DNA of 64,000 nt from Bacteroidota bacterium. GTDB taxonomy: Bacteria > Bacteroidota > Ignavibacteria > Kapaibacteriales > DASPKH01. The stretch's first letter is position 1. Every line of letters starts with the position of its first letter. The position numbers were made by a program, and so were the translations under genes. The DNA lies in the NCBI GenBank assembly GCA_040386315.1, contig JAZKFS010000001.1:24099-88098 (forward strand), read 5' to 3'. The notes under the pieces are model-generated. The model was not told where the DNA came from and searched no databases. It saw only the letters and a program-made list of their open reading frames with translations. This document shows positions 24,384 through 48,253 of the stretch, piece after piece.

Positions 24384-24781
24384 CTCTAAATCCTTATAGG
24401 TCAATGACTTATAAGGATTTTTGCTTTTAACGCGTAACAAATACATAACAAAAATATCGCGTTTTTTAGTTGACTTCTTAACATTTAGCCCACTTTTGCT
24501 CAAGTTTCTTAGTTAAGTTTGGAATTTTTCCAGTAACACCACCCACCTAGGAGTTATTAGTGGTATGCAATAAACCAAATTATCTAAGCCAAAGAGAACT
24601 CCTGTAAAACTGACACGATCTTCCGAAGTCTTCAGACTTCGACCGGGCCTCAGTATGAAATAGATTCCAGAAAAAAGCTTAACAACTTCATGGTTAACCT
24701 TTATGTCTCCCGTACACCTAAGACTAACCTATTTTGTTTTATACCTGCATTTTTTGTTCGTACTCGATACAGTAGTATCTT

Positions 24782-25432
24782 ATGCAAATTGATTTCGGCT
24801 TTACAGATAAAAATATTGCTCAATATTTCACTCCTAACTTTGTTACGAGTGAGGTATTGACCAGCAAAGAAAAACTTTATGCTAAGGGTTTTTCGCATAA
24901 AAGATTATGTCATTTTAGTACAGGCAGACATTGTGCTAAAAAAGTCATTGAAAACTTAAATGTAGCTGATAATGAAATTTTAATTGGATCGGATAATGTA
25001 CCGGTCTGGCCGAAAGGTATTGTTGGCTCGATTAGCCATACTAATGGTATGGTTGGAGCAGTTGCTGCAAAGTCTTCTGAACTACTTTCAATAGGAATGG
25101 ATATTGAGGAAATCGGGCGTGTCAAAGGCAATATGTGGGATATGCTATATACCCCAGCAGAACAAAAATATCTTTATCAACTACCGGAAAAAGAAAAGGC
25201 TCTTTACACTACTTTACTCTTTAGTATGAAGGAAAGTTTTTATAAACTTCAATATCCTCTTACACAAAATAAATTATGGTTTACCGATGTACAGATTAGT
25301 AAAAAAGATGAAAACTTCAGTCTGCAGGTCTTGATCGATTTTGAAGGCAAAGAATTGCTGAAAAATTCAACCAAGCTTCATTTTGCAGTCTTTAATAACT
25401 ATGTCATCAGTCTTTGTTTTATAGAAAGTTAG
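24782..25432 (+). CDS. 4'-phosphopantetheinyl transferase (Sfp/PfaE-type)
   Basis: The PPTase motifs are GSISHTNG, IGMDIEEI (the (V/I)G(I/V)D motif) and LLFSMKESFYK (the (F/W)(S/C/T)xKE(S/A)xxK motif). It lies next to a multi-ACP PKS. Confidence 0.75.
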   Translation: MQIDFGFTDKNIAQYFTPNFVTSEVLTSKEKLYAKGFSHKRLCHFSTGRHCAKKVIENLNVADNEILIGSDNVPVWPKGIVGSISHTNGMVGAVAAKSSELLSIGMDIEEIGRVKGNMWDMLYTPAEQKYLYQLPEKEKALYTTLLFSMKESFYKLQYPLTQNKLWFTDVQISKKDENFSLQVLIDFEGKELLKNSTKLHFAVFNNYVISLCFIES

Positions 25433-25709
25433 TCAACTAATTTCTCTTATCTTTCAGAGCTTCTTCCGTAAAAAAACATTAATATGTTTCAACAGTAAGT
25501 ACCTTCATAAAACGAGGACATTCAGTAGCTCCGACACTAACCATGATGGATGTGAAAATGTGGGCTAGGAAAGATTTTTAATCTGGATATCATAGGTGAA
25601 CTGGATATGATAACAACAGGGCTCATTGGAAGGAGAAATATATTGATTCGCAATATATTCCTGCGTTTTAGCCAGTCGGATAATATGTTGTAGCTTCTAT
25701 TCTTTTGAT

Positions 25710-28145
25710 TTAAATATCATCAAATTGTTCTCTTCTTTCTGTTCCTTTTTTACTGTAATACAACTCTTGACTGACAATTATTTCAGCACCTTCAGATCTT
25801 AGGCACACTTTTGAGTCCATATCATAAGTGGTTACATTAGCCACCAACTTAGTTGGTGAGTGTGTTACCATTTCAAAGAAAACATTGTAATCCTTATCAA
25901 ACTCAAGGGGCTGATATACCAAAACCTTATTACACTTTACTGGAAGACTCCCAGCATCGTAAATATACTTGGCCCAGATTAACAGACCCTGATACTGAAC
26001 ATCGGAAATAAAAGTATTTATTTGATTGATAGGAAATTGCCCTTGCATCTCATCCTCAACTGATTTTACATTGCATTGAAAACGCATGTAATTCTCGCCA
26101 TATATCTCCACCTCCTTAATCCCTTGAAAAGATTTTCCATGAAATAAGGTACCGTTTGTATAATAATTATCTCCGTTTTTCTTCAAATTACATTCAGGTA
26201 AAGTGGGTAAAGAAAATGATGGAATTTCTTCTTTACGTTTTGTCAAAATCACCTCACTTCTGTAATGGAAAACTTTATTTCCATAATCATTTTGACTGTA
26301 AATACTTCCTTCACATTTAATTGTATCCTGGGATTTTTCCAGTTCTTTAATTTCAAGATGATAATCTTTGATTAAATCATCATTTAAAACTATACCTTTA
26401 AACATTTTACTGTTTTCAATTGCAGAAATGTATAAGCCTGGGTAGAGGTTGGCTGTAGATTCTGCAATCCAGGCTATCGAACTTACAACCGGAAGTACCG
26501 GATTCCCTCCTATTTCATGGTCATGAAGAAAAGGATTTAATTTTAACTTCAGCTGGCGATTGATCAAATATGTTTTCAGAGTCGAATCTGCACTATAATT
26601 TGGTACAGGTTTCGTTGCATAAACGACCTCAATATGTGTGTCAGCGATATTTAATTCATTTATAAAAAATTGAACAGCCTTGTCTTTTTCGATAGAAATG
26701 ACACCATTTTCCGCAAATAAATTTCTAAGCTGAGGGCTTGTATTTTCATCATTCCAGGGTGCCCAGTTAAATGCTTTTACTATACATCCGGGATTTTGGT
26801 CATGTATTTGATAACATACATGATTAAGGATTTCATCGGTCATAGCTACTTCAACCTGGCCAAAAGATCCAAATTTTCCACCGGCAGAAGAAAACACTAT
26901 TAAATACTTTAACTCATTTAGGTTGATGGCTTTAAATACATTGTAAAAGTTCTCAATTCTAGCAAAAAAAATCTTTTCAAATTCCTCAATTGTCTTTCGT
27001 TCTATTTGTTTATAGGTCGTTTTGATGGATCCAAAAATTACTCCGGAGATTGATCCTAATTGTAATTTTTTTTTCTCCATTTGTTCTTTGAAAACCGTTT
27101 CCTGATAGAAAGTGACCTTAGATCCTACCTCCTGCAAGGTTTGGACAATCTTTTGAATCGTTCTTTTATAAATGATTGAATCATAGAGTTTTTGCACCTC
27201 AATTGGTAGTGGGTTCAAATTCTGCGATTTAAGATAATTTACAATAATCTCCTTTAAGTTCTTTTCTTCTATAATGCCTCTAGACCAATCATCTTCAGGT
27301 ATACTAATATCAGCTTTACCCACTACTAATAGTTCCGGCTTGTACCTTTTAGCCAATTCTAAAACTAAAGAACTGGTTGGCTCATTTTCAATATTGTCAA
27401 CAGCAAAAACTTCTGCTTTGGAAACAGGATTATAAGAGGTAATTGTCGGAACCAAGGGCTTAAGTTCTAATGCATATCTGCCTCTTTTGTGCCATATAAT
27501 TTCTTTAAAGTTTAAATTCGGGTCAAAAAGCTCAGAAAGTAAAAGCTCTGCTTTTTCTTCATGAGTATATGAAGTTGAAAACTTTATATGTCGGCTATTA
27601 CAATCTGGCCATTCAAGACTTAAACTATTTGCTAAACCGGTGTAAGCTCCATTCAGAGCCGATCCACAGGCAATATTCGGATGACCGTAAAAATTTGAAA
27701 CAAAAAAGATCTGAAACATCTCCGATTTTTCATAAAAAAGATCTTTAAGACGCTTCGATAATAAAAATGCCGTTCTGATAGAAAAGACTTCTGCCTTGAG
27801 ATTTGGTGAAAAAATATCATTCCCTAAACAAGAAAAGAAAAGCAAACCGGATAAAGATCGCCTAATAATGTGTTCAGCGTCCTTTAAAGCGTTTTTAATC
27901 GATTCATCATTAATATTATCCAATTTTACAGATTTTATTTCCTCTGAAATACTTGATTGTGTTTTAGAATTACAAATCACGACAATTTCAATCTGGTTCT
28001 TTTTTAAAATTTTTACGAGGGGATTAAAGAATTCAATGTCATCGGAAAAAATCACATAAGCATTTCTATAAGGCAATACAGACACAAGTCTGTCAGGATA
28101 AGGAAGTTGTTTTAAGGTAGGGATGCGGCGAAAAATGGATTCCAT
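25710..28145 (-). CDS. Degenerate ketoreductase-dehydratase (KR-DH) paralog of the 702-aa KR-DH protein; probably non-catalytic
   Basis: It is homologous to ORF 36984..39092: LIVFSSAGGKFGSFGQVEVAMTDE aligns with ICCFSSVAARMGNIGQVDYAMANE, and KAFNWAPWNDENTSPQLRNLF aligns with KSINWGPWEGGMVSPQLKKHF. The catalytic Tyr of the YxxxN motif is replaced (VAMTD), and there is no Gly-rich NADPH motif. Confidence 0.6.
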   Translation of the reverse strand: MESIFRRIPTLKQLPYPDRLVSVLPYRNAYVIFSDDIEFFNPLVKILKKNQIEIVVICNSKTQSSISEEIKSVKLDNINDESIKNALKDAEHIIRRSLSGLLFFSCLGNDIFSPNLKAEVFSIRTAFLLSKRLKDLFYEKSEMFQIFFVSNFYGHPNIACGSALNGAYTGLANSLSLEWPDCNSRHIKFSTSYTHEEKAELLLSELFDPNLNFKEIIWHKRGRYALELKPLVPTITSYNPVSKAEVFAVDNIENEPTSSLVLELAKRYKPELLVVGKADISIPEDDWSRGIIEEKNLKEIIVNYLKSQNLNPLPIEVQKLYDSIIYKRTIQKIVQTLQEVGSKVTFYQETVFKEQMEKKKLQLGSISGVIFGSIKTTYKQIERKTIEEFEKIFFARIENFYNVFKAINLNELKYLIVFSSAGGKFGSFGQVEVAMTDEILNHVCYQIHDQNPGCIVKAFNWAPWNDENTSPQLRNLFAENGVISIEKDKAVQFFINELNIADTHIEVVYATKPVPNYSADSTLKTYLINRQLKLKLNPFLHDHEIGGNPVLPVVSSIAWIAESTANLYPGLYISAIENSKMFKGIVLNDDLIKDYHLEIKELEKSQDTIKCEGSIYSQNDYGNKVFHYRSEVILTKRKEEIPSFSLPTLPECNLKKNGDNYYTNGTLFHGKSFQGIKEVEIYGENYMRFQCNVKSVEDEMQGQFPINQINTFISDVQYQGLLIWAKYIYDAGSLPVKCNKVLVYQPLEFDKDYNVFFEMVTHSPTKLVANVTTYDMDSKVCLRSEGAEIIVSQELYYSKKGTERREQFDDI

Positions 28146-29856: not shown

Positions 29857-29885
29857 CTATTGCTACTCTTACGTTTAATTTAGTT

Positions 29886-32800
29886 TCATTCAATAATTTG
29901 AAAAAGCGGATTCATTTTTCCTAGAATAGGATTAATAAATGGCTTATGATAACTCTTAAAGCCCATAAACTGGTACAAAGGCAATAATTCATCCCTACAA
30001 AACATTAGAAGCAATCCTGGTCCCATTTTTAAAATGTGATCATAAACACCTACACACAAAGTTCGTAAGTCTGTAAAATCCCGGTAATCAGAATGAAATA
30101 TCAACTTATCGGTAAAATAAAAATCGTCGAATTTTTCCTGAAAAGCAGATAATTGATAGTTTTCAAAGAATTCCGAGCTAGCATTTGCCATTTTTAACAT
30201 GTTTAGCCGGCAAACACCAATTATTCTTTTATCCTTTTGAAGATAAAAATTTACACCTGTGGCATCGAGTTCATCAGTTATTATTTTTTCATTTTTATTG
30301 GGAAAATCATATCCCATATTTTCCGCATAAACTGTATACCGAAGCCGGTAGATTTCATCCAATTCTTCTTGAGTAGAGGCAATTTTTACTTTTCCCAAAC
30401 CCTTATCCACTACCCGCATTCCAATATTTGGGGCATGGTAAATTTTTAATCCATCAACCCACAAACGAGACTCTCCCATTACTGTAATGGCCTGTTCTTC
30501 TATGAGCACTTCCCTAACTTCAAAATCAATAGAAATCAACTTTTTATCGGGGGTAACTTGTCCTCTATAATGCCATTCTGTTTCTTCCATTATAGCAATC
30601 GGCTCAAAAACAGGATTATTCAGATGAGCGTGAAATCCTTGATCTAGCATATAAAACTGCATGAGTTGCACCATTGCTTCAATTCCCAGGGAGCCGGGTT
30701 GTACCGGATCCTGGAAAAAATGCACTTTAAAAAACCATTCGCTTTTTTCTACATCTTTTTCTGACTTGATATAACCTTTTCCATGTTTTCCACCTTCCGG
30801 ATAGAAAGCTACTATTCTGTCAATCATAAGCAATTTCGATGACGGAAGGCAGGCTGAACTTGCGCTGAAATATTTCTCAGGGAAGGAAGTTAAATCTACT
30901 TGGACATTGCTGGCCAGAGACACATTTACTTTTTCTTCTGAGGTAATGGCTAATCCCTTCTGGGTTTTCATCGACCCGGTATCAAAAAAGCCGAAAACCG
31001 TGTTCATAGTAAAAACAGGCTCATCGTTAATAGTAGAAACTACATCAAATTTTACAATGATGATTTCTCCCATTATCGATACACCAGTTAGGTCTGTACG
31101 GGTAATAATGGTTTTATCTGCGGGAGTAATTGGCCTATGTTGAATAGCTTTGCCATCGAGATTGCGGAACACCAAATCTTTATCCTTAATGTCATGCTGG
31201 CAAATAAAGGTACTAAACCAACCACAAGGCTGTAATGCTACCTCCATTAATACCCCGTATGGCATGGTTTTATAACCATTTTCCCTGAAATACCAAACAT
31301 CCTCCGAAATATCGTACTCTGCCACCGCAAATGACTTAGCCTTGTAATTTCCGGGTTCTAGCTGGTAATCGGCAATGCGAGTCATAAAATGATATGGAGG
31401 ACCTGGTAATCGTGGGCTTCTGTCCGATCCATCGTAATGATTAAAATCAGGTCCGAAGGCATCTGCTGGCCGACCCAAAGCACAATTAATCAAGGATTCG
31501 TACCCAAATTTAAATCCTTTATAATTGGCGATAGGCTTTCCAACTACATCCTCCTCAATTAAATGCCGCATAGTAGCCAAAGGCCAATCAGGAACAAGTC
31601 TTAAGCCAAGGCCTTCACAAAGAAATGCTTTATTGCCATCTACTGTAGTTAAAACGTGGGCATAAATTGTAGGATATTCGCCATCAATGATTTCCGAAAC
31701 AAAAATTTCATAAGTAACTTTTTCAGATTCCGGGGTAACCTGTCCGCGACAAACAAACTTGTATTTATCGTTAGTAACGGGTTCAAAACGCCAACCGTCT
31801 TTGTTAACCGTTAACCCGGCTCCTACCATATAAAAAGCCATCATCTGCATGCAGGCATCAGCCATTAAGGTACCGGGCATGCAAGGATCATTTTTAAAAT
31901 GGCCTTTGAAGTACCAGTCATTCGGATTTACAGTTGTCTCTGATTTCAGATATCCTCTTTTTGCAGGTCCTCCAAGCAGATCGAAAGTGGTTATATTTTC
32001 TATAAAATTCTGATATCCGGCTTGTGACCGGGGAGTTCTGGTATGAGTTGTAGTCCAGTTTAATTCTTCTCCGAAACAAGTAACCATATCTCCTAACGTA
32101 TAAGCAACAACCTCTTCAGAACTAAAGGATTGTTTCTTAGTTGGGCTTTTTAGATGTGGAAGAGCGGAAGAACTATATGCTGCTTTTTCAGGATCCCATA
32201 TAATTCCTTTAGACTCTTTTAGCTCTTCCTTTGTAAAGAATCCAGCCTGCCCATTTCTTACTGATATTCTAAGGTTGCCATCAATATGGCAGTCATAATG
32301 GAAAAAGAATAATGTTGTTTCTCCTGTTTTCGCATAGCCGTCAACATGAATTTCATATTTTAGCGTATCACCGGGCTTTGGTAACTCACCAAAGAATTCC
32401 AATTCGCAGCCTAGTAAACGGTATGCCCTTTCACCTTTATTCTGAAAATCAATTCCCAGATACGATATAAGCAGTAAGTCTGCCTGACCTGCTTCTATAA
32501 AGATCCCGGGAGGCATACGGTTATTATGCAAATACCAGCTCTGCTCTGTTACATCAGTTTCTGTCCAAATAGTACCCAGCTTTAGCGAACCAGGTTCTCC
32601 TTTGATACCCGTTACTCTGTCACACAGCAATAAGGGAGGCTCAGGCATTCTCACTTGAATGTCATATTGATCCTGCTTTTCAAATAAAGATCCAAAGACA
32701 GAAGATATTTTTCCAGATGCAAGAATCTCTAACTGCTCTCTGCTAAATTTTGGGCCCGGCAGTCCCTTAACATCTTCAAGCAAAGCAGTGGAAACCTTCA

Positions 32801-35800
32801 ACTCTTCACCTTGTAGAATAGAAGAAGAAGCAGGTAATTGCAAATCTCTATTTTCTTTATTGACTATAAACTGACTATTCGATGAGATACCTTCATCAAA
32901 TGGATATTGCTCTAATGGGACTACATTTCTCTGGCCTTCATTTATCAATTGGCTAGCCATGTTTTGCAAAAGATTTGTAAAATCTCTCTGGGCTTTTAAC
33001 TGTACTTTAAGGAAATTATCATATACTTCAGTCATTATGTTATGTTGATCTAATATCATGTCTGTTATAAAGCCTGAGCTTTCCATTACCTGGTCATTAT
33101 TTACAAACTGCACGGTTTGATCAGAAACTTGGAATGTTTGAGTTGCTGCCATATTTTCTTCTTTATTCTCAGCTGAAATAATCGAAGGTATATTTCGCAT
33201 CACTCTTTTTGTCACTGCTATCTGAGGTGCTCTTTCCAATATATGTGGCGAATTCATAGGTTTTTCAGATGCTGAAGTATGAAACATTTTATTTTGGGAT
33301 ACCATCTTATTATGTATTTGCTCAATGTGCATGGGAAATTTAATTTCCATCACTGGCTGTTCTGTTTTACTCATGGCAGCCAAAACTTCCAGATTTACCG
33401 GAACACCAGCACACCACAATTCTGTGCTGGCTCTAAAAGCTTCCAAGAGGTCAGATTGTCCGAATTTATCTAAAGCTACACTTACAAAATCTCGTCCTTG
33501 TAGAATTTCATGGATCGCTAAGGTTAAGCTGTTACGTGGACCGTGTTCTACAAATACGCGGACACCATCTTTATATGCTTTTTCTACAATTCTGGTAAAA
33601 TCAATAGGCTGCAAAGCCTGGCCGGTTAAGGCGTCAGCGACTGTCTCTGAAGTGGGTGAATAAATGCCATCCAGGTAATTAGAATAGAATCTAACATCTT
33701 CAACTTTATTTACCTTTCTGGTATGTAGCTTCCGCCATTTATTTTCATATGGAATTGCAGGAGCACAATGAACAGCAATATCGTGATGTAATGGCATTGC
33801 TTTTTCAGCACCAATATGGTGTAGTATTCTTGCGCAGGCTTCTTTATCACCGCCAATTACACAATCACTTTTTGTATTTACTATGGTCAGATATACGCGC
33901 TCTTCATTAACCAGGAGCTCTCTGACCTCCTCTACAGGTGCTAAGATTCTCCAATTTTCCCAATCCACTTTTTCATGAGTCTTCAATCCCCAGTATTCTT
34001 TTACCGAATTGAAATCTACTGCTAATGATGAACGGTACAGTTCACTTTCGTAAATATCCTCTAACAGGGTGTCCATATCTTCCCAAACACCAAAAGCAAA
34101 CATAGAATTGGTTTCTCCTGATGAAAGTCCGATAGAGGCATCAGCCTTTAATCCCAGTACCTTCCGAGTAAACGTAGAATGCACCTGGCACATCAAAGAA
34201 GAGCCAGTTAATTGGTAAAATGGCAGCTTTCCTTTCGGGCTATTTGTTTCATATATCCAGTCTCCTGCAAAAGCCGGGTTTTTGCAGAAATGTTCTACTC
34301 CTTCCACCAATCCCGGAAACTCCTGTAAAAGATCCCTTCCCATTTGAGGATAGGCTGATGCCGCACCTGTAAATACAAAGGCTACCTCTCCATTTATCTT
34401 TTGAGATCTATAATGTATAAAAGGGGTGATCCAACCATTGATCTTTTTTTCCTGTTGCAATAATTGTAAAGACTGTTCTTTATGCTTTTGCAAATCCTCT
34501 ATTGAAGAAATAATTCCCAGGCGATGTGTACCATCCTGAGAATAAACATTTTCTTTTATTGAATTAATAAGCGATACTTTATCATTACCGGAGTAACAAT
34601 GAATCAACAAGGATTCCGTACTACGGATTTTTATATCGTTCAATGGTTGAGAATGAACAAAGACATCACTTTTAGCTCCGAATAATGAATAACATGTGAT
34701 TTTATAAGAATAGTCGTTGCTATTTTCCAGCAAAGGTTTTAAAGATGTAGCTTCATGTATCTGTAAACGATGGCGGGTCAATAACACAGCGGTCGCGACT
34801 TCCAACAAACCGCTACTCGCATGAGAATAGCCGGTTTTGGACCTCATATAACCATTATCGAACGGGTAAACATTTTCACGCTTTTCATCTGAACCAATTG
34901 TTGCATAAATTGAATCGCCATCTGAAATCGCTTTATTATAGTCCTTTAAAACCAAAACAACTGCCGTGTTGCCTGAAGGAAGATTTATATCCAATACATT
35001 TGACAATGCTGCACGATTCACCAGCTCATCCGACATATCAACCGCTCCTACAATAGCGGCACTAAGTTCTCCATTTTGTATTGCGTCTATAGCCACCTCA
35101 AGGGCTTTTACGCCCGAAAGCTCTTCACATGAAACTGTAAAACCCGTTCCCGTTAAATCAAAATGATAGTTAATTCTATTTGCCGGAATATTTGGCATAG
35201 TACCCAAAGCACCTGCTGCATTTAGTACGGGGCTTATAGATTCTTCAAGTTGCTCCAATTCATTTCTTTCATATGCGATATTGCCTTTCTGTAGTAATTC
35301 CTTAAGTCTTATCCGGAATATATACCTGTTAATTTCGGCATCCGCCCCGATTCCAACAAATACCCCGGTACTTTCCTTATCCAGCTTAGCACCCTTTGCC
35401 AGCAATTGCTGAGTGGTTTGAAGCATTAATAACTGCTGGCCCAAAGCATACTTCAAATCAATTGGAGGAGAGCTTAGTTTATTAAGTTCAAATGTTATAT
35501 TTTCATTTGTATACTTGCTGGCATCTTCATTCAATAAGCACTTCACATAGTCGTTTGCGCTTTTGAATTTATCAGACTGTACTTCCACACCGACAACTGC
35601 AACTTTTCGCTTCTTTGGATTACTTTTATTTGTAGGATACTCGGTAAGAGGGTTCCATTCTTCCAATATCACATGCGCATTATTTCCACCAAAACCGAAG
35701 TTGCTTATTCCAGCTATCCTGTTTCCTTTGCTCTTCCAATTCGCAGGATCGTTGGAAACTGAGAAGCCGCTGTGTGCTAAACCTTCATTAAGTGGGAACG

Positions 35801-39092: not shown

Positions 39093-39232
39093 CTTAGTGG
39101 TTGTACCAACTGTGTGAAATAACCTTTCCAGCTGTTTGGCTATACCTTGATCATCTTCTACTATGTATAAGATATCCGCTTTTTTCCAGCTGGTATATCC
39201 AAATCCATTATCAGCTATCGGCGCACGGGAAA

Positions 39233-42200
39233 CTATATATCTAAATATGTTGCCGTGCGCAGGGACTTTTTTCCCTGTGAAAAAACGCCTCCTGCGCCAG
39301 TTAAATCTGTGTTACTAGAAAATGCAAGTATTTCTCCAAGCGTATTCATTGCCGCTAATTTGGCTTTGTCTACATTTTTCAATTCAGGGAAGACTTCCTG
39401 TAAAGCAGAAAGAATCTCTACCCGTTTGATAGAGTCTATTCCCAATCCCGACTCAAGATCGGTCTCTAGATCCAGTATTTCTTTAGGATACCCAGTTTTT
39501 TCTGCAACTATCTCCAGCATAGTATCTTTCAAATCACCATGCGAAACAGTATTATCAGTCGCAACTGGAGCCCCACCCTGACTTGCCGGAGCATTACCTC
39601 TGGAGAATCTAAGTATTTCTCCAAGTGTATTCATGGCAGCTAATTTCGCTTTATCTACATTTTTTAAGTCAGGAAACACATCTTGCAAAGCAGAGAGAAT
39701 TTCCACTCTTTTTATAGAATCAATTCCTAAGCCGGATTCCAGATCGGTAGTTAGATCAAGAATTTCTTTTGGATAACCTGTTTTTTCCGCAACAATCTGC
39801 AACATGGTATCCTGGAAGTTCTCTGAAACTGCTTGTGTTGTAACCGGTGCGGGAACAGCCCGCTGACCTACTGAGTTTGTAGGTTGTGGTGAACTGCTTT
39901 TAGAGAAAGCAAGAATCTCAGCCAAAGTATTCATTGCTGCTAATTTAGCCTTATCAACACTTTTCAAAGCTGGAAACACATCTTGCAAAGCAGAGAGAAT
40001 TTCCACTCTTTTTATAGAATCTATCCCTAAGCCAGATTCCAGATCCATATTTAGATCAAGAATTTCTTTTGGGTAGCCTGTTTTATCAGCAACAATAGTT
40101 AATAAACTATCTTCGAAAACAATACCAGCGACAACAGCAGGTGCTTGTACTTGTGGTCCAACAACGTGAGGAGCAACAATAACTTCTTGTACAATTTGCG
40201 GTTTGGCTACCATTCTTTCTACTACTGGCTGTGGTTGAGATACAACTTGTTTCTCAGGAGCAGCTGGTAAATATTGGGGTGCTGACTGTTGGATTGTTGC
40301 ACCATTACCTGACAAGTTTCCTAAATGGTGAAACGCTACCTGAGATGTTTCTAAAAACATCCGGTGACTTTCTGCTAAAGTTTCCTGAAAACTTTTTTGT
40401 GCACTCAGTGTATTTTTCTGAATTTCCTGAAATGCACTTAACCATTGATTGTTTATTCCGCTCATTGTGCTTTTTTGTGATGTTGTTTGGATTAAATTTG
40501 TTCTGATCTCTGTTTTTTGAGGAGCAGATTCTTGGCTGGTTACTACTTGTTGTTGTTTCTGTTGCACCGGCACCGCGCTGTTTTGATTGTTAACAGTATT
40601 GACTATTTGCATTTCCGGCTGTGGGACTTCAACAACTTCTGGATTCGGTTTTGGAAGACTATTAAATCCTCCTACAGGTGGATAAGGTTTTCCGTAATTA
40701 GATCCGTTAATCTTTACTGTGGCAACAGATGGTTTCTTTTGTGCGATAACTTTTTTATTGTCATCGATACTTTTCCAGATTTCTTCGAAAGCAACAGGAA
40801 TACCTGTCACAGCAAGATGACCAATAGCTCCCCAGAAAGCATCTTTACTGTTCAACTTTTTACCACCATCCATAGAAATGGCCGTGTGTGGTTTATCTTT
40901 TAAAATATCTTTAACAAAGTTTCCTAATACTTTACCAGGACCAACTTCTAAAAATACTCTCACACCTTCTGCATACATTGCCTCAACCTGTTTCTCAAAC
41001 TGCACAGGTGCTGCCAGTTGATTGGCTAACACCTTGGCGTACTCTGCACTATTCCTAGGATAATGTGAGGCAGTGGTATTGGAGTACACTGGCATGCTCG
41101 CTGTACCAAAATTTATCTTTTTCAGGTAGGTTTCAAAGTCTACTGCACTACCTGCAACAAGGTCAGAATGAAATGCAGTTGACACATTCAAACGCATAAA
41201 GCGTATTCCGGCCTGTTCAATTTCTTTCTCAATTTCTACTATAGCATCAAAAGTTCCTGTAATAACGGTTTGAAGAGGGCTATTCAAATTTGCGATCACC
41301 ACTCTGGTTTTTGCTTTCTTTAAAAATTCTGCAACCACTTTAGAAGAAGCAAGTACGGCTGTCATGGCACCCTTTTCTTTCGAAGCAGCTGCCATTAATT
41401 CACCTCTTTTTCTGGAAATATTTATCAAATCTTCTTCATTGGTAATTATACCTGCAGCATAAAGTGCAGCCACTTCACCATAGCTATGACCTCCTACTAC
41501 ACTTGGCACAACATGTAATTTATTCAATAAATTTAGATGCGACATCGCCAATGCTCCAATAGCAGGCTGGGCCCATTTCGTATCAACCAGTAAATCGGTT
41601 TGGGCTTGTATTTCTTCTTCCGAGAAAACAGGAATAGGATATACAACGTTATTCAACCGTTTGCTTGGATCGAGTTTCATAGACGAAACTTTATTCCATG
41701 GACTTAAGGCTGCGTCATATTGCATCAATAGATCAGCACCCATATTTACATATTGACTTCCTTGTCCGGAGAAAAGGAAAGCTACATTTCCATCAGGTTT
41801 CTCTTCAGAATAAAAAACAGTGTTATTGATTTCTACTTTAGAAACTTTTTTTGCAAGTTCAGAAATGACATGTTCGCTCCATTTTAATATTTCAGCCATA
41901 TTTTCACCATAAATGGCAAGCCTTACAGTGTCCTGTGAATTAAATGCAGCTTGTGTAGATTTAGCTAATTGCACTAAATCCTGGGTCGTTCCGCCACTTT
42001 TTAAATGCGTAAGTGCACTAATTATTTCTGCCTGATTTTTTCCTGAGTATAAAAGTAATTCGCGGCTAACATTGTAAACTTTATCTGGTCGATTCGCTTT
42101 TTTATCATACTCTTCCATTACGACATGGAAGTTAGTTCCACCAAAACCCATGGAGCTAACTCCTGCTTTACGTGAAGTAGTTTCATCATGGATCCATGGC

Positions 42201-43501
42201 CTGGCTTTAGTATTCAGGTAAAAAGGACTGTCTTCTATATGTAGTTTTGGATTGGGTTTTTCAACTTTTATGGTTGGAGGTAAAATTGAATTGTTAAGAG
42301 CCATGGCCACTTTCAAAATACTGACAGCCCCAGCAGCAGATTTGGTATGTCCAATCATAGACTTAACAGAACCTAAGGCACAATACTGATTTCTTTCAGT
42401 AGCACCATATCCTAATTTCAATCCACTGAACTCTGCATAATCCCCGGCCATTGTTCCGGTTCCATGTCCTTCTACCAAATCAATCTGATTAGGAGTAAAA
42501 CCTGCATCTTCATATGCTCTTTTTATCGCTATTGATTGACCGTTAGAATCCGGGGCATAAATACTTCCTGATTTTCCATCAGAAGAACTTCCGATAGAAG
42601 CAATCACAGCATAAATTCTGTCGCCATCTCTTTCAGCATCTTCCAATCTTTTCATTGTCATCATGGCTATAGCTTCACCGAGGACAGTTCCATCTCCGGT
42701 ATCAGAAAAAGGTCTGCAATCTTCTGTTGGAGAAAGCGCCGTTGTTTTGCTGAAACACATATACATGAAGATATCATTCAAGGCATCCGATCCACCGGTA
42801 ATTACCATGTCTGTTGTTTCAAGTTGCAACTCTTGTACAGCCATTTTAACGGCTGCTAAACTACTAGCACATGCTGCATCAAGTACACAATTGGTTCCTT
42901 TTAAATCGAACCTGTTTGCTATTCTTCCGGATACTACGTTTCCTAATAATCCAGGAAAAGTATTTTCATTCCATTTCGTATAGCTGGTATCTAAATCTTC
43001 TGTAATGGCTTTTATTTTACTTTCCGGGAGGCCCTGTTTACGCATAGCAGAAACCCATTCAGGCTTATGTATCTTGGCAGACATCTGGCCAATTAACTCG
43101 GTGCCCCCTGCTACTCCAAGAATAACACTGATCTTGTTTTTATCAACTTTACCATCTTGATAACTAACTGTATCTGCCAGAGTATCTCTTGCAACCACTA
43201 GAGATAGTAATTGTACTGTATCAGTAGTACTTAAAAGATTTGGAGGCATGCCGTATTCTACGGGATCAAAAGAAACATCATCCAAAAAAGCTCCCTTCTT
43301 ACAATATACTTTATCCCCGGTTTTATTATTCGGATCATAATAATCCTCTGTGAGCCAGTGGGTATCCGGAACATCTTTTACCTGATCTTTCTCTGCAAGA
43401 ATATTTAACCAGAAATCCTTCGTATTAACTGCACCGGGAACTAATGTGCCGGTACCTACGATAGCAATTTTATGCTGTCCTTTTTGGTTTTTATGTTCCA
43501 T
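39233..43501 (-). CDS. PfaA-like PKS subunit: KS - AT - Pro/Gln-rich linker - three tandem ACP domains
   Basis: The KS domain has VLDAACASSL, EGHGTGT and GHTKSAAG. The AT domain has FLFSGQGSQY and GHSYGE. There are three ACP repeats, each with the phosphopantetheine site LESGLGIDSIKRVEIL. Confidence 0.9.
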   Translation of the reverse strand: MEHKNQKGQHKIAIVGTGTLVPGAVNTKDFWLNILAEKDQVKDVPDTHWLTEDYYDPNNKTGDKVYCKKGAFLDDVSFDPVEYGMPPNLLSTTDTVQLLSLVVARDTLADTVSYQDGKVDKNKISVILGVAGGTELIGQMSAKIHKPEWVSAMRKQGLPESKIKAITEDLDTSYTKWNENTFPGLLGNVVSGRIANRFDLKGTNCVLDAACASSLAAVKMAVQELQLETTDMVITGGSDALNDIFMYMCFSKTTALSPTEDCRPFSDTGDGTVLGEAIAMMTMKRLEDAERDGDRIYAVIASIGSSSDGKSGSIYAPDSNGQSIAIKRAYEDAGFTPNQIDLVEGHGTGTMAGDYAEFSGLKLGYGATERNQYCALGSVKSMIGHTKSAAGAVSILKVAMALNNSILPPTIKVEKPNPKLHIEDSPFYLNTKARPWIHDETTSRKAGVSSMGFGGTNFHVVMEEYDKKANRPDKVYNVSRELLLYSGKNQAEIISALTHLKSGGTTQDLVQLAKSTQAAFNSQDTVRLAIYGENMAEILKWSEHVISELAKKVSKVEINNTVFYSEEKPDGNVAFLFSGQGSQYVNMGADLLMQYDAALSPWNKVSSMKLDPSKRLNNVVYPIPVFSEEEIQAQTDLLVDTKWAQPAIGALAMSHLNLLNKLHVVPSVVGGHSYGEVAALYAAGIITNEEDLINISRKRGELMAAASKEKGAMTAVLASSKVVAEFLKKAKTRVVIANLNSPLQTVITGTFDAIVEIEKEIEQAGIRFMRLNVSTAFHSDLVAGSAVDFETYLKKINFGTASMPVYSNTTASHYPRNSAEYAKVLANQLAAPVQFEKQVEAMYAEGVRVFLEVGPGKVLGNFVKDILKDKPHTAISMDGGKKLNSKDAFWGAIGHLAVTGIPVAFEEIWKSIDDNKKVIAQKKPSVATVKINGSNYGKPYPPVGGFNSLPKPNPEVVEVPQPEMQIVNTVNNQNSAVPVQQKQQQVVTSQESAPQKTEIRTNLIQTTSQKSTMSGINNQWLSAFQEIQKNTLSAQKSFQETLAESHRMFLETSQVAFHHLGNLSGNGATIQQSAPQYLPAAPEKQVVSQPQPVVERMVAKPQIVQEVIVAPHVVGPQVQAPAVVAGIVFEDSLLTIVADKTGYPKEILDLNMDLESGLGIDSIKRVEILSALQDVFPALKSVDKAKLAAMNTLAEILAFSKSSSPQPTNSVGQRAVPAPVTTQAVSENFQDTMLQIVAEKTGYPKEILDLTTDLESGLGIDSIKRVEILSALQDVFPDLKNVDKAKLAAMNTLGEILRFSRGNAPASQGGAPVATDNTVSHGDLKDTMLEIVAEKTGYPKEILDLETDLESGLGIDSIKRVEILSALQEVFPELKNVDKAKLAAMNTLGEILAFSSNTDLTGAGGVFSQGKKSLRTATYLDI

Positions 43502-43502
43502 A

Positions 43503-45119: not shown

Positions 45120-45904
45120 AAAATATTATGTAATTAAGTATTCAGACTAAATTATTGTGAAAATTGTCGGCAATATGCTAGCAGACATCTGCAAGTGATA
45201 ATTTTACATGTGTAATACAACACGTTACGTGTAAAGCACTTGCAATTCTGATACGGGTACAAAAATATAGGAAGAATGAAAACTATAACTACTAAATAAC
45301 TACCAATAATTTTGCATCTAATTAGATACCAACGAGTTACGAAGATTTTAAAGCTATACAAGAAACTTTAAAATGTATTAGGGTAGAATGCTATATTCTT
45401 AGGTAATGTAGTTGATTCAACGAGTTACAACAACAAAAAACCTGTAAGCCGTTGATTTACGAGAGTTTAACTGGTGGGATTAGAGGGACATCTCGAACCG
45501 CATGTAAGACCGCACTGTAGCTTGCTTCAATTTTATAATTTTATTTTTGCCGTTCGTTTGCAGAATACCCAATTGAATCTACTACTTTAAATAATATTCC
45601 ATAACCATTCTTAAAAAAGTGAGGAATTTGCGCTGCTCTTTAGCCGGATTCCAGCCCTGGGAGAGATCCCTCCTCGCCCACTTTTTTATTCTTGCAAGAC
45701 AACTACTTGCAACGAAATTTTTCTCCATAAAAAAACTACAACATTAATTATTTTTGCAAAAACAACTGTGCCTGTTTATCATTTCTTTTATATAAAAATG
45801 AAGAAGTAAAAACTTTTAAAAACAGACATATTTTCTCGTATGGTAATTTGTTGTAGTTTTATAATCCAACTGTATATTGGTACATCCTTTATCACTTTTT
45901 TACG

Positions 45905-47614
45905 ATGGTTATGGCGCAATCTTCTCACGATAAAAAAGCTCAACAGGCGCGTTTACAATATATCAATAATTTTGCTGATACAAATCATTCGAGTGACCCG
46001 GCGGAGTGTATTCACCTGATGGCGGAAGCTGCTGAAATATATCGTGAGGAAGGGGAGTTCCATCTTCAAGCCCGGAGCTTGTGGCGGCAGGCATTCAGTA
46101 TGCGTGAGCTGCTACAGTTTGAGGAGATCGTGCCTGTCCTGGAATCCGCGTTTGAGATTTGCATTAAGCATGGTTTTAAAAGGGAATGTGCGAAGATCTG
46201 TGGTGAACTTGGCAGCATGTACCAGATCTTAGGAAATTTTACAAAGTCTAGAGAGAATATTCAGCGTTCACTTGATGGATATCGTGAATTAAACGATGTG
46301 GAGCGTCAAGTAATTACACTTTCTGATTTTGCAAACCTGAACGTCGCAGAGGGTAAATTCACCGAAGCATTACAGCATTGCAATGCTGCTTTCCTGATCT
46401 GTGAGGAAAATAGCATTGATCTACCCGGGCTCCTATGGGTCATTAAAGGTGTTATTTTTTCCAGCATTGGCGATGGACAAAGAGCGCTTGACGCTTATGT
46501 ACAATCATTGGAAATTACGCGGCAGGATCCTCTTTCAGAAATTACCGGCATGACGCTCTCCGCAATGGGCGAGCTCTACTGGCATAAAGGCGAGCCGGAA
46601 ATTGCGCTTGAATACATGAAGGAAGGCATTAAGGAGTATCGGCGAACAAAATGTCCCGATGAGGAAATGTGGCTGCTGTGTAATGTGGCGGGAGTGCTCA
46701 CGGAACTGAATCGAGTAGATGAAGCTGAGGAATATATAGCTAAGGCATCAAATATTTTAAAAGGCCGCGAAATTCCTGCTGCAATGCTGCCGGTGCTTAC
46801 TGCAAGCGCTAAGCTTCAACAGGCGAAGGGAAATCCCGATGAAGCACTCAGGATTTTACACGAAGCGCTCATGCTTTCGGAACAACTGAATGAGTTCAAC
46901 GCGCGTACCCGGATATTTCTGGAGAAGGGACGCCTTCACACAGGAAGTGAACAAGAGGGGTTTTTAAAAAATGCGCTTGCTATGAGCCAGATAAGCGGTC
47001 AGAAACAAATGAATTATAACATTCATTTTGCATTATACGAATATTATCAGAATCAGGGCGACAGCTTTCAGGCGTTAGAGCATTTTAAAACATATCAGCT
47101 TTTAAAAGATGAAATGCTTGCCGAGAAAACGCGCCTCCAGATGGATATTTTGAAAGTAGAAAATGAGATGCAGAAGATTATAAAAGAAGCCGAAGACAGT
47201 AAGATCAAACTAAAAGAACTCACATCTGACCTAATACAGCGAAATGAGGTATTGTCCGAGATCAGGAAACTAGCCCAACACGGACTTCAGCAAAAAGGCA
47301 TTATTCAAAAGAAAAGCTTGTCCTCAATAGTGCGAACTACTGAGGCCGGGGCCACTTCATTCTGGAAACAACTCGAAGAGCGTTCGGAGCTAATCGACAA
47401 ATCGTTGTCAGAAAAGGTTCTTGATCTGTGCCCGGATTTTACCTCTATCCAACTTCGCATCCTCACGCTTTTAAAAGCCCGTCTCTCCAATAAAGAAATT
47501 GCACAATTACTTTTCATAACAGAAAGAGCCGTCGAATACCACCGCACGGTGATCCGGAAGAAACTTCACCTGAGCACCACGACAAATATATCGGCATATC
47601 TCAGTACACTATAA
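45905..47614 (+). CDS. TPR-repeat + LuxR-type HTH transcriptional regulator
   Basis: It has an N-terminal TPR-like helical repeat region and a C-terminal GerE/LuxR HTH (LSNKEIAQLLFITERAVEYHRTVIRKKL). It is divergent from the pfa operon across a 780-bp AT-rich region. Confidence 0.75.
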   Translation: MVMAQSSHDKKAQQARLQYINNFADTNHSSDPAECIHLMAEAAEIYREEGEFHLQARSLWRQAFSMRELLQFEEIVPVLESAFEICIKHGFKRECAKICGELGSMYQILGNFTKSRENIQRSLDGYRELNDVERQVITLSDFANLNVAEGKFTEALQHCNAAFLICEENSIDLPGLLWVIKGVIFSSIGDGQRALDAYVQSLEITRQDPLSEITGMTLSAMGELYWHKGEPEIALEYMKEGIKEYRRTKCPDEEMWLLCNVAGVLTELNRVDEAEEYIAKASNILKGREIPAAMLPVLTASAKLQQAKGNPDEALRILHEALMLSEQLNEFNARTRIFLEKGRLHTGSEQEGFLKNALAMSQISGQKQMNYNIHFALYEYYQNQGDSFQALEHFKTYQLLKDEMLAEKTRLQMDILKVENEMQKIIKEAEDSKIKLKELTSDLIQRNEVLSEIRKLAQHGLQQKGIIQKKSLSSIVRTTEAGATSFWKQLEERSELIDKSLSEKVLDLCPDFTSIQLRILTLLKARLSNKEIAQLLFITERAVEYHRTVIRKKLHLSTTTNISAYLSTL

Positions 47615-48200
47615 ATATTTTTACGTAGTTTTTAAGATTGTTTTAAAATCTCACGAAACCATTGCTACTAAAGGACAGACCAATTTCTTGCTGGTCATTT
47701 AGTAGTGACATCTATTATCTTGCACCCATAAGAATTGCATGAGTATTATTCACACTGCGATTCACATCTTTATTAATTACGTAGAGGGTGTCGTAATGCA
47801 ACACACAAAAGGAATCGCCGAAACAACTCGTTTAAATTTTTCATATGTCCACGGTTCGTGAAAAATGCAAAAAAGTGAACACTTATAAAATTGACAACGC
47901 TTTATTATGTTATAACAGAACAGGGTAGATTAAACCGGATAAACAGAAAATAGATATTGTAATAATAAAATTGATAAAAGCCGTATGTATTCAGCGGTTA
48001 AAGGTAGCAAAAGACTGGTAAGTTAAAATTAACTGTTATAAGGGAACTTTCCAGTCGGTTCGAGCGCACATCTAGGCAACCTACTGAGTTAGAAATACCA
48101 AAAGCATTAATGAAAAAAAGTAATTTAATTCAAAATTTCCTTGGTCTAATTTTGGTCTAATAACTTTAAAAACCTATCAAATTTTCCAAATTTCGAGGCT

Positions 48201-48253
48201 TACCTTACTCCTACGAATCAGAAGGTTGTAAGTTCGAATCTCGCCGGGTGCAC
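48201..48253 (+). mobile_element. Direct repeat of the 3' 43 nt of tRNA-Arg(ACG) (att core; right boundary of the pfa insertion), preceded by TGGTCTAAT arm-type direct repeats
   Basis: ctacgaatcagaaggttgtaagttcgaatctcgccgggtgcac is identical to tRNA-Arg positions 32-74. Upstream are tggtctaattttggtctaata repeats (48138-48160). Downstream is a terminator hairpin (aaagcccttgaac..gttcaagggcttttt). Confidence 0.75.

Follow-up and report, generated by a model that had tools for sequence, protein, structure and literature searches.

The 64,000-nucleotide stretch of Bacteroidota DNA analyzed here (the window) contains an island integrated at a tRNA-Arg(ACG) gene and carrying a PUFA-type synthase. 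We favor, with moderate confidence, the reading that this synthase would release its acyl chain as an N-acyl amino acid through a GNAT domain fused to the C-terminus of one of its subunits, and that the system is probably decaying. The features on which this reading rests are collected in Table 1.

Table 1. Features of the tRNA-Arg(ACG) island and the adjoining tandem island, in window coordinates.
Feature	Position	Strand	Basis
tRNA-Arg(ACG), intact	24310..24384	+	ARAGORN; Rfam tRNA 64.9 bits
attL, last 43 nt of tRNA-Arg(ACG)	24342-24384	+	
Terminator-like hairpin AAATCCTTATA...TATAAGGATTT and T run, directly 3' of tRNA	24388..24426 (approximate)	+	sequence reading
Sfp-type 4'-phosphopantetheinyl transferase (PPTase; PfaE role)	24782..25432	+	PF17837, PF01648
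Joined remnants of condensation and FAD_binding_4 genes	25488..25702	-	tblastn/blastx
FAD_binding_4 gene remnant, last ~25 codons	25488-25562	-	
Condensation-domain gene remnant (stand-alone gene), first 47 codons	25562-25702	-	
PfaA2-like paralog, 811 aa, dead KR and PKS-type DH	25710..28145	-	Pfam, TIGR02813, alignment
pfaBC pseudogene fragment, last ~88 codons	28309..28555	-	stop codon and frameshift
Conserved protein of pfa-associated family, 367 aa	28753..29856	-	homologs, neighborhoods, AF2
PfaBC-NAS, 2361 aa, KS-CLF-AT-DH-DH-GNAT	29886..36971	-	Pfam, NCBIfam, motifs
PfaBC-NAS, FeeM-type GNAT / N-acyl amino acid synthase-like domain	29889-30389	-	
PfaBC-NAS, two FabA-type DH/I domains	30417-32834	-	
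PfaBC-NAS, AT domain with GLSSGE	33498-34403	-	
PfaBC-NAS, CLF domain	34632-35564	-	
PfaBC-NAS, KS domain	35592-36959	-	
pfaA 3' part, KR-DH, frame shifted	36984..39278	-	homology, alignment, motifs
Apparent 1-nt deletion splitting pfaA	39251..39253	-	ACGGCAAC here, ACGGGTAAC in L001
pfaA 5' part, 1422 aa, KS-AT-ACPx3	39233..43501	-	Pfam; TIGR02813
PfaD-family enoyl reductase (ER), 538 aa	43503..45119	-	TIGR02814
TPR and LuxR(GerE) regulator	45905..47614	+	Pfam
Right end of island 1, ~97 nt and 43-nt att copy (48211-48253)	48114..48253	+	
Island 2 (tandem), closed by third att copy	48254..61303	+	

A tRNA-Arg island in a tandem array

The 23.8-kb block at 24385-48210 is a genomic island that arose by site-specific recombination into the 3' part of tRNA-Arg(ACG). 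It lies between the intact tRNA and a perfect 43-nt direct repeat (24342-24384 paired with 48211-48253) that spans the tRNA from the anticodon loop to the 3' end; ARAGORN, Rfam and the repeat search agree on these borders, which the sequence-only reading had also drawn. A third att copy, 42/43 nt with one deletion, lies at 61262-61303, and therefore two islands stand in tandem: the single island of about 24 kb described earlier holds as a block but is one of a pair. The ~97 nt that precede the repeat at the right end of island 1 match the right end of island 2 at 70%, and this common arm includes GGTCTAAT repeats and TACCTTACTC. Island 1, being tRNA-proximal, would be the latest acquired of the two. 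As had been claimed, island 1 has no integrase: no Phage_integrase match was found in any of its ORFs or in six-frame pieces of its end regions, where no integrase remnant was recognizable either. None was found in island 2. The integrase of island 1 may have been lost since entry, or may never have been carried.

The biosynthetic genes of island 1 are foreign by composition. The GC content of the island is 0.381, against 0.447 and 0.436 in the flanks, and the correlation of tetranucleotide usage with the host is 0.35-0.48 within the island and 0.88-0.94 outside it. The density of TTTTAAAA falls from 4.5-5.2/kb in host CDS to 1.76/kb in island 2 and 0.21/kb in the pfa genes, and GC3 is 0.28-0.33 in the pfa genes and 0.40-0.51 in host genes. 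The distinct composition reported earlier does not, however, extend to the distal 2.4 kb of the island, which includes the regulator and is like the host; the exception is seen at 45.8-47.65 kb, and the regulator itself has a GC3 of 0.447 and 3.5 TTTTAAAA/kb. Since the regulator and the right arm are host-like, the repeats enclose a composite unit.

L003 is the only relative found to be syntenic at this locus (FadL-AAA-FNR-MgtE-S20-tRNA-Arg, with MgtE 86% identical), on a contig that stops 1.3 kb past the tRNA. Directly 3' of its tRNA-Arg lies a hairpin homologous to window positions 48254-48293, and the 1.3 kb available holds a C-terminal integrase fragment but neither a PPTase nor any pfa gene. 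In the window the tRNA is followed by a hairpin unlike that of L003, which is island-borne sequence in the window. The att copies, the distinct composition and the L003 locus together bear out the earlier claim of horizontal acquisition, with the comparison of relatives at the tRNA-Arg locus resting on this one short contig. That the region is instead ancestral, and the repeat a product of chance or local tRNA duplication, is highly improbable. The absence of an integrase would fit such an origin, as would the setting of the 78%-identical L001 cluster in DNA with the same rare TTTTAAAA enrichment as the host; however, the three att copies and the conserved arms beside them, a sharp compositional break, a relative in which the tRNA runs directly into the 48254-48293 hairpin, and the position of the L001 cluster away from any tRNA all argue against it.

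The synthase genes and the frameshift in pfaA

The cargo is an iterative FAS/PKS of the PUFA-synthase type, made up of a PfaD ER, a PfaA (KS-AT-ACP3-KR-DH), a PfaBC (KS-CLF-AT-DH/I-DH/I) and an Sfp-type PPTase. Domain annotation by Pfam and NCBIfam agreed with the earlier assignment of a Pfa-type cluster, with both curated cut-offs passed: TIGR02813 (PfaA) scored 1160.7 bits against 1010.1 from the 1422-aa part alone, and TIGR02814 (PfaD) 576.3 against 449.25 for the ER. The PPTase and the ER are 76% and 85% identical to their counterparts in L001. The 5' part of pfaA encodes the motifs DAACAS and EGHGTGT in its KS, GHSYG in its AT and GIDSI in each of three ACPs, which are mirrored in the DNA by three 230-nt repeats; the 3' part encodes GGAKG and YAMAN in its KR and HRIEGKVIVP in its DH.

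PfaA had been described as split into a KS-AT-ACP3 and a separate KR-DH protein. Both ORFs are present, but relative to the intact L001 ortholog (2180 aa, 77% identical) the split reads as a 1-nt frameshift, which the sequence-only reading had not noticed. Past the deletion the conserved sequence resumes in the other frame, with homology to intact PfaA from 39278 and no canonical start codon for 62 codons; the longest ORF, of 702 aa, begins at a GTG at 39092. The sequence comes from a MAG, and so an assembly error could account for the indel.

The C-terminal domain of PfaBC-NAS

The 2361-aa protein is, as reported earlier, a fusion of AT, two KS-type and two FabA-like DH domains with an extra C-terminal domain. 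Pfam matches comprise PF00109/PF02801 and four stretches of PF07977, and the motifs DAACAS, ECHATGT, NIGH, HFKNDPCMPG and HFFQDPVQPG are those of a PfaC-type KS-CLF and of DH/I domains with their active-site His. The AT reaches 74.5 bits for TIGR02816, short of the 144.3 cut-off; it has the GLSSGE serine motif, and its sequence can be aligned with the AT regions of homologs labelled 'PfaB family protein'.

The terminal domain had been called acyltransferase-like, and an off-loading role for it is plausible; more exactly, its family matches and predicted structure identify it as a FeeM/AHL-synthase-type GNAT. In isolation it scores 32.1 bits for Acetyltransf_5 (PF13444; GA 22.4) and passes FeeM (PF21926) marginally, at 27.9 bits against a GA of 27, while FeeM scores of 37-55 bits are reached by the stand-alone proteins closest to it. 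The AF2 model (pLDDT 91.7) has the FeeM/AHL-synthase-like GNAT fold, and the family-conserved residues R28, Y29, D53, R72, R114, C142 and G154 are kept; the catalytic Glu of AHL synthases is not evident in its subfamily. The PEP-CTERM/exosortase-associated acyltransferase model TIGR03694 was rejected (35.7 bits, cut-off 111.95, over the N-terminal 85 residues only), and the OlsB and AHL-synthase models score far under their cut-offs. PfaBC-NAS has no match to the 1-acylglycerol-3-phosphate O-acyltransferase (AGPAT) family PF01553, which is present in many PfaBC homologs; at the same C-terminal position homologs have AGPAT, a condensation domain (PF00668) or nothing. The nearest PfaBC homologs (P0003-P0005 and P0007, 64-70% identical) lack a C-terminal domain altogether. 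PfaBC-GNAT fusions also occur in L001, L089 and L093, with GNAT identities of 81% for L001 and 45% for L089; the L093 domain (protein P0012) shares 45% identity with P0153, a stand-alone relative.

Enzymes of this class use acyl-ACP donors (PMC8762209). By analogy, the domain may take the ACP-bound chain, which would be long and probably unsaturated, and join it through an amide bond to an amino acid, a putative acceptor that the sequence itself does not specify; the product would be a long-chain N-acyl amino acid (lipoamino acid). The chain would not be given to lysophosphatidate, the acceptor used by AGPAT in related Pfa3 proteins.

Accessory genes and remnants

The 811-aa paralog had been recognized as a degenerate KR-DH protein, and this is upheld: it covers TIGR02813 positions 1734-2577 (E 8e-95), its KR lacks GGxxG and has Val in place of the catalytic Tyr, and its PS-DH domain has an intact HxxxGxxxxP. 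Over its last 295 aa it shares 80% identity with the C-terminal extension of PfaBC in L001. It may serve as an auxiliary, DH4-like dehydratase. The 367-aa protein, listed earlier as an unknown ORF, has 32 homologs and no Pfam match among 26 members of its family; its AF2 model is all-alpha (pLDDT 93.7), with no PDB match. In L093/L094 the family's gene directly follows the PfaBC-GNAT gene, as in the window, and the protein may be an accessory component of the pathway.

What had been noted as a DH fragment pseudogene is real. It corresponds to the tail of a PfaBC lacking the GNAT, from where the second FabA DH ends through to the C-terminus, and is 45-54% identical to PfaBC C-termini (for example, residues 2115-2200 of 2200 in P0005). 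The condensation and FAD_binding_4 remnants are 68% and 56% identical to L001 genes, and their junction reads as an internal deletion relative to that cluster. Together with the pfaBC fragment they record rearrangements. Given the pfaA frameshift, the deleted condensation and FAD genes and the pfaBC 3'-end relic, the pathway in this genome is probably impaired or decaying. In L001/L002 pfaBC carries a frameshift, and so two of the four known PfaBC-GNAT examples may be inactive. The regulator is just 31% identical to that at the equivalent position in L001. It had gone unmentioned in the sequence-only reading, as had the PPTase, the third att copy and the condensation/FAD remnants.

Comparison with known systems

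The earlier reading considered the domain organization non-canonical and argued from it for a non-standard product. Both elements have in fact already been catalogued: the genes are ordered as in myxobacterial pfa1-3, and the split and fused layout is that of Type D. The Type D layout of Shulse and Allen, from Bacteroidetes, comprises pfaA1 (KS-AT-ACPn), pfaA2 (KR) and pfaBC (KS-CLF-AT-DH2), and its producer Psychroflexus torquis makes ordinary AA and EPA (PMC3098273); layout alone is therefore no argument against a PUFA chain. The window shares with Type D a Bacteroidetes host, a pfaA divided between KS-AT-ACPn and KR(-DH) and the pfaB-pfaC fusion, but its pfaA split appears to be a recent 1-nt frameshift, and it adds the C-terminal GNAT, the dead-KR/DH paralog and the 367-aa family gene. 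P. torquis is not among the top 120 homologs, and the likeness to Type D rests on layout.

In the myxobacterial layout the ER comes first and Pfa3 is fused, with AGPAT as the proposed release domain (PMC6731297). The window resembles the Pfa1-Pfa3 systems of Gemperlein et al. (PMC6731297) in its order of ER, KS-AT-ACPn-KR-DH and KS-CLF-AT-DH/I-DH/I with a C-terminal acyl-transfer domain, in the optional extra PKS-like DH ('DH4') and in the fusion of a release domain to the last subunit. It differs in ending in a FeeM-type GNAT (PF21926/PF13444) instead of AGPAT (PF01553), in carrying the DH4-like domain on a separate dead-KR/DH protein, and in having three ACPs and a Bacteroidota MAG as host.

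FeeM, NasY and the PEP-CTERM-associated acyltransferases (TIGR03694) are stand-alone enzymes of ~180-260 aa fed by FAS II acyl-ACP, whereas in the window a Pfa megasynthase carries the domain as a covalent fusion. Pfa-like lipid chains are also passed to amide- or ester-forming release catalysts in PfaBC-condensation fusions and PUFA-synthase/NRPS hybrids, such as the Mucilaginibacter 'pfaBC', zeamine and chitinimines (bioRxiv 10.1101/2025.10.24.682833). The window has no A or PCP domains and its condensation gene is a 47-codon remnant; release there would use the GNAT. Three sister clusters (L001, L083 and L094) have a stand-alone condensation domain homologous to the PfaBC-fused one. Read jointly, these PfaBC-NAS fusions, usually with the 367-aa family gene and often with a stand-alone condensation domain, might represent a previously undescribed release chemistry of PUFA synthases, a proposal that we make only tentatively.

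Alternative explanations

The most serious competitor to release as an N-acyl amino acid, although we judge it unlikely, is that the island is a non-functional relic, acquired by transfer and decaying, with no product in this host. The pfaA frameshift with no canonical restart, the reduction of the condensation and FAD genes to remnants, the pfaBC 3' pseudogene, the dead KR of the paralog and the frameshift in the sister cluster L001/L002 all speak for it. Against this, frames of 2361, 1422, 811, 764 (shifted), 538 and 367 codons are open at 38% GC and the catalytic motifs are all intact; inactivation would therefore be very recent, or the indel an assembly error of the MAG. Moreover, natural splits of pfaA occur in the same ACP-KR linker in L083 and L085, and in Type D. 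Less probable again is an ordinary Type D or myxobacterial-type synthase that supplies AA/EPA-like fatty acids to membrane lipids, with release in the customary way by the PfaBC AT or a thioesterase and a GNAT that is irrelevant or inactive. The layout shared with P. torquis (PMC3098273) and the nearest PfaBC homologs that end without an extra domain are consistent with this, and the PfaB-type AT has been reported as a terminal acyltransferase (PMC12895367); yet the GNAT is conserved in fused homologs, retains its family residues and a confidently predicted fold, and sits where other relatives have proven or presumed release domains. We give somewhat less credence still to a GNAT acting on another amine or by AHL-synthase-like chemistry (SAM/homoserine lactone, ornithine or polyamine), with a signal-like or ornithine-lipid-like product, as the best family and structure matches are to FeeM/NAS and the OlsB and AHL-synthase models score poorly.

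On the more tentative reading above, in which PfaBC-NAS fusions share a previously undescribed release chemistry, the megasynthase would pass its long, possibly polyunsaturated chain straight to the FeeM-type domain fused to it, yielding N-acyl amino acids or related lipoamino acids. The pathway would gain a new component in the 367-aa protein, with its predicted fold unmatched among solved structures, and such cassettes would travel among Bacteroidota lineages on integrase-less tRNA-Arg islands. Like other tandem tRNA-integrated islands, those in the window adjoin an intact tRNA on one side, carry direct repeats of its 3' part and conserved arms at their ends, and show a gradient of foreign composition; what sets them apart is that neither has an integrase and that island 1 is host-like in its distal part. 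Island 2 carries RNA-repair genes of the Ro60/Y-RNA/RtcB/Hen1/Pnkp kind, its cargo being a BNR/sortilin protein, Pnkp, Hen1, RtcB, a 314-aa unknown protein, Ro60 and YrlA-like RNAs.

Gene content of the tRNA-Arg island

Eight genes lie within the 23.8 kb between a tRNA-Arg(ACG) gene, called intact by both ARAGORN and Rfam, and a perfect repeat of its final 43 nt (anticodon loop through 3' end). PfaA and PfaD exceed the curated NCBIfam cut-offs (1160.7 bits against 1010.1 and 576.3 bits against 449.25, respectively), and all of the expected catalytic motifs were found: the KS Cys/His, the AT GHSYG and GLSSGE, three ACP GIDSI serines, the KR GGAKG and YAMAN, the DH HxxxGxxxxP and two copies of the FabA HFxxxPxxPG. 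The KR of the 811-aa protein has neither the glycine-rich NADPH motif nor the catalytic Tyr; its DH motif is intact. An earlier sequence-only reading had described the tRNA with its repeat, the domain set, the FabA-DH pseudogene and the degenerate KR, and ARAGORN, Rfam, NCBIfam and the motifs confirm this description. With the exception of a frameshift in pfaA, the Pfa-type iterative synthase is complete; a PPTase is present, and a FeeM-type GNAT is fused where known release domains sit.

Features of the tRNA-Arg locus (window positions)
Feature	Coordinates	Strand	Remark
tRNA-Arg(ACG)	24310-24384		att copy 1
tRNA-Arg T-arm	24358-24374		
42-nt stretch	24563-24604		near left end of island 1
Sfp-type PPTase	24782-25432	+	
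Joined condensation and FAD gene remnants	25488-25702		
811-aa KR-like and PKS-type DH protein	25710-28145	-	
FabA-DH fragment	28309-28555		pseudogene
367-aa ORF	28753-29856	-	without family match
2361-aa KS-CLF-AT-DH/I-DH/I-GNAT protein	29886-36971	-	
KR-DH ORF	36984-39092	-	
KS-AT-ACP3 ORF	39233-43501	-	
PfaD-family enoyl reductase	43503-45119	-	
TPR and LuxR regulator	45905-47614	+	
43-nt tRNA repeat	48211-48253		att copy 2
Island 2	48254-61261		BNR/sortilin protein and RNA-repair set
42-nt stretch	51744-51785		between BNR gene and Pnkp
RNA-repair genes	51816-59976	-	
Ro60/TROVE gene	58543-59976	-	
YrlA-like Y RNAs	60232-60831	-	upstream of Ro60
Third tRNA repeat	61262-61303		att copy 3

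Tandem islands of mixed composition

The third att copy, which was missed by the sequence-only reading, matches at 42 of 43 nt with a 1-nt deletion and has its own terminator-like hairpin behind it. Copies 2 and 3 have a further ~97 nt upstream in common, at 70% identity and with repeated GGTCTAAT and TACCTTACTC; these stretches look like common arm sequences. Taken together, the third copy and the common upstream stretch indicate that the locus is a tandem array of two islands. Neither island contains an integrase gene, as the earlier reading had said of the first. Translated in six frames, 24385-24790, 45115-45910 and 47610-48215 had no match in Pfam, and tblastx of the tRNA-adjoining region of the syntenic relative against the window found nothing.

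This relative, L003, was the only one found (MgtE 86% identical; FadL-AAA-FNR-MgtE-S20-tRNA-Arg conserved). Directly after its tRNA there is a hairpin homologous to window 48254-48293, followed by a 46-codon fragment (L003 1023-1163, +) ending ...LMGHEDINITLNHYTL, which matches the Phage_integrase C-terminus (E 0.0026) and lies ~130 nt from the tRNA-Arg, suggesting that in L003, too, this tRNA is a hot spot for integration. The comparison with related genomes that the sequence-only reading had named comprises this one locus, in which no PPTase or pfa gene follows the tRNA in the 1.3 kb up to the contig end. Between the window tRNA and that of L003, 6 of 43 positions differ in the 3' half and 1 of 32 in the 5' half. 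Such an imbalance fits a 3' half brought in by the element in place of the original one, although counts this small are no proof. Inspected by eye, the T-stem of the window tRNA (GTAAG/CTCGC) has an A-C mismatch, present in all three att copies, and that of the L003 ortholog (TGGAG/CTCTA) is fully paired.

The seven biosynthetic genes have a GC3 of 0.28-0.33, against 0.40-0.51 in flanking genes, and the correlation of tetranucleotide usage with the flanks is 0.35-0.48 inside the island and 0.88-0.94 outside. The 8-mer palindrome TTTTAAAA occurs at 4.5-5.2/kb of host coding sequence but at only 0.21/kb in the pfa genes. Host-like values are found for the regulator gene and right arm at 45.8-48.2 kb (GC3 0.447, TTTTAAAA 3.5/kb), so that the distinct composition previously attributed to the whole island holds for the biosynthetic genes and not for this part. 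Between the window and L001, the locus with the closest sister cluster, identity is 76-85% for the enzymes but only 31% for the regulator. What the repeats enclose is a composite, arising either from capture of foreign pfa genes by a native element or from replacement of the regulator. The density of TTTTAAAA in island 2 is intermediate (1.76/kb), which would fit insertion of the newest island at the intact tRNA and outward displacement of the older one.

Islands have clearly accreted at one tRNA here, and by TTTTAAAA the three segments form a graded series of 'ages', which makes this 8-mer a potential molecular clock of acquisition for the lineage. Across host DNA, coding regions included, the palindrome is found at 4-5/kb, 15-50 times expectation; for example, 17 of 23 Leu-Lys dipeptides are encoded TTAAAA. 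Among ~90 fetched loci this lineage-specific enrichment is limited to the closest relative L003 and to L001/L002, the loci with the sister cluster. Ordered by apparent residence time, its density falls from host to regulator to island 2 to pfa genes.

Domain layout and the pfaA frameshift

The organization of the cluster had been regarded as non-canonical, and the split and fusion had been taken to argue against a standard EPA/DHA-type PUFA; the layout is, however, already known. A split pfaA and fused pfaBC are found in Type D of Shulse and Allen, from marine Bacteroidetes (pfaA1, KS-AT-ACP5; pfaA2, KR; pfaBC, KS-CLF-AT-DH2), of which the producer Psychroflexus torquis makes AA and EPA, and pfaBC fusions also occur in Types H, I and L (PMC3098273). 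The ER-first order, fused Pfa3, extra domain resembling the PKS-like 'DH4' and C-terminal acyl-transfer domain are as in myxobacterial Pfa, where the last is an AGPAT (PMC6731297). Because the same layouts are known from Type D and the myxobacteria, the split and fusion are by themselves no argument against a PUFA-like chain.

The two pfaA ORFs of the sequence-only reading are borne out, but their separation is not an organizational feature of the cluster. L001, on a 252-kb JGI metagenome contig, encodes an intact 2180-aa PfaA; window homology to it runs in one frame up to 39251 and in another from 39278, and the window has a 1-nt deletion (ACGGCAAC, against ACGGGTAAC in L001). A designed split is rejected on this basis for the present sequence. 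The first canonical start in the downstream frame is the GTG at 39092, and the 62 codons conserved ahead of it in the shifted frame imply that the frameshift, known from one MAG assembly ('Bacteroidota bacterium', protein MES2764266.1), is either a very recent event or an assembly error. Exact-sequence searches with the window's MgtE, P0001, P0121 and the 1422-aa PfaA part returned no record, and that with the 367-aa ORF only a 1.8-kb Logan contig. Natural pfaA splits occur at the same ACP-KR linker in the more distant relatives L083 and L085.

A FeeM-type GNAT at the release position of PfaBC

Residues ~2184-2361 of the 2361-aa protein, searched alone, pass the gathering threshold of Acetyltransf_5 (32.1 bits, GA 22.4) and, narrowly, that of FeeM (27.9 bits, GA 27), which substantiates the extra acyltransferase-like C-terminal domain seen by the earlier reading; a PEP-CTERM-associated N-acyltransferase model, OlsB and an AHL synthase are weak matches. 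The near-invariant family residues R28, Y29, D53, R72, R114, C142 and G154 (domain numbering) are retained. A scan of all of 1.84 billion representative proteins returned 615 relatives, of which the best 150 are all shorter than 700 aa and carry the GNAT alone or with cNMP-binding or methyltransferase domains. The closest stand-alone relative (P0153, 42% identical; L092 847-1829), on a short metagenome contig, has a tandem paralog of 74% identity beside it. Long-chain acyl-ACPs are the donors for this enzyme class (PMC8762209).

Among the top 120 PfaBC homologs the C-terminal position holds nothing (P0003-P0005, P0007), an AGPAT (PF01553; many) or a condensation domain (PF00668; Mucilaginibacter 'pfaBC'). 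The GNAT fusion is found in four lineages (the window, P0002/L001, P0006/L089 and P0012/L093). A metagenome scan with the GNAT alignment revealed no further fusions and only two distant stand-alone relatives (26-27% identity). In tblastn of a plasmid collection with DH2 plus GNAT the DH part alone matched, so no plasmid in the collection carries the fusion. Our literature search found no published description of a PfaBC-GNAT or PfaBC-NAS (N-acyl amino acid synthase) fusion, which is no proof of novelty. Pfa-like clusters on genomic islands, pfaBC fusions, split pfaA and terminal acyl-transfer domains are already known; what appears to be new is a terminal domain of FeeM type and its link to the 367-aa family. 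The exchange of this C-terminal module within the PfaBC family, now including a FeeM-type N-acyl amino acid synthase, points to a modular release chemistry in PUFA-type synthases.

For the 367-aa ORF, 32 homologs (27-54% identical) form a conserved family, the closer members of which sit in pfa-like clusters. The family gene lies directly after PfaBC-GNAT, with a condensation gene next, in L093/L094; after PfaBC, condensation and amine oxidase genes in L083; and ahead of HAD, patatin, PfaA1, PfaA2 and PfaBC-AGPAT in L085. A distant member in Ozemobacter (33% identity) has no pfa linkage. No Pfam match was obtained for 26 members, and the all-alpha model of the protein (pLDDT 93.7) has no meaningful match among solved structures. 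These gene neighborhoods indicate that the protein is probably a recurrent accessory of this pfa cluster family.

Rearrangements relative to the sister cluster

The gene order in L001 is regulator, ER, PfaA, PfaBC-GNAT-DH', condensation (430 aa), FAD_binding_4 (577 aa) and PPTase. Of the condensation and FAD genes the window retains 47 codons from the start of the former, joined to the final ~25 codons of the latter; the interior of both is deleted. The DH' extension that follows the GNAT in L001 has an 80%-identical counterpart in the last 295 residues of the 811-aa protein, which makes L001 look like the product of an in-frame deletion of the stretch that holds the 367-aa gene, DH fragment and dead KR in the window. 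DH' is distant kin of the PS-DH located between the FabA DHs and AGPAT in the long homologs P0034 and P0051, and is in this sense DH4-like. The DH fragment matches the extreme C-terminus of GNAT-less PfaBC proteins (e.g. P0005, residues 2115-2200 of 2200) and is what remains of an earlier pfaBC 3' end, suggesting that a segment comprising the DH2 end, GNAT and 367-aa gene may have arrived as a cassette via recombination within DH2. In two independent assemblies of the sister PfaBC-GNAT gene (L001 9624-10001; L002 2751-3128) the first 59 codons are in a separate frame; with this frameshift in the KS domain near the pfaBC start, the sister copy may also be impaired.

Predicted product and alternative explanations

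N-acyl amino acids are bioactive and surfactant lipids; elsewhere they derive from the acyl-ACPs of FAS II. We propose that the GNAT would hand the ACP-bound chain over to an amino acid, acylating its amine, to form a long-chain N-acyl amino acid that may be polyunsaturated; dehydration would be tuned by the DH4-like protein and, where the cluster is more complete, the product would be further modified by the condensation and FAD enzymes. Testably, expression should yield such lipids. The prediction bears on product release by PUFA-type synthases and on what the many 'secondary lipid' clusters make. The product is predicted from sequence, and the example is partly degraded and comes from a MAG.

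An ordinary PUFA destined for membranes would agree with a layout shared with Type D, and is to be set against the GNAT at the release position with its family residues retained. If the GNAT does transfer the chain, the acceptor could be an amine other than that of an amino acid; against this, the best matches of the domain are of FeeM type, and OlsB and the AHL synthase score far below their cut-offs. The cluster could also be a dead relic: with pfaA frameshifted and tailoring genes deleted, the pathway may not operate in this genome, while the catalytic motifs of the synthase are all in place. That the region is not an island, the least likely alternative, would accord with the absence of an integrase; the tRNA repeats and the composition of the biosynthetic genes speak for the island reading.

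RNA-repair genes and Y RNAs of island 2

The RNA-repair genes encode Pnkp (850 aa), Hen1 (465 aa), RtcB (454 aa), a 314-aa protein without family match, and Ro60, uniting Ro60/Y RNA, RtcB and Pnkp/Hen1 in one operon-like block on a tRNA-Arg island. The 42-nt stretches of the two islands are 83% identical to each other. Upstream of Ro60 there are 3-4 tandem Y RNAs with a tRNA-like module, comprising a GGTTCGAGTCC T-arm and an acceptor-like stem capped by TTTTAAAA; they score 28-46 bits against Rfam RF02553, under its gathering score of 69 (E 9e-9 to 2e-3), and neither ARAGORN nor the Rfam tRNA model calls them. The GGTTCGAGTCC repeats at 60.3-60.7 kb were considered as permuted tRNA genes, a reading that we reject, as they are YrlA-like Y RNAs beside Ro60.
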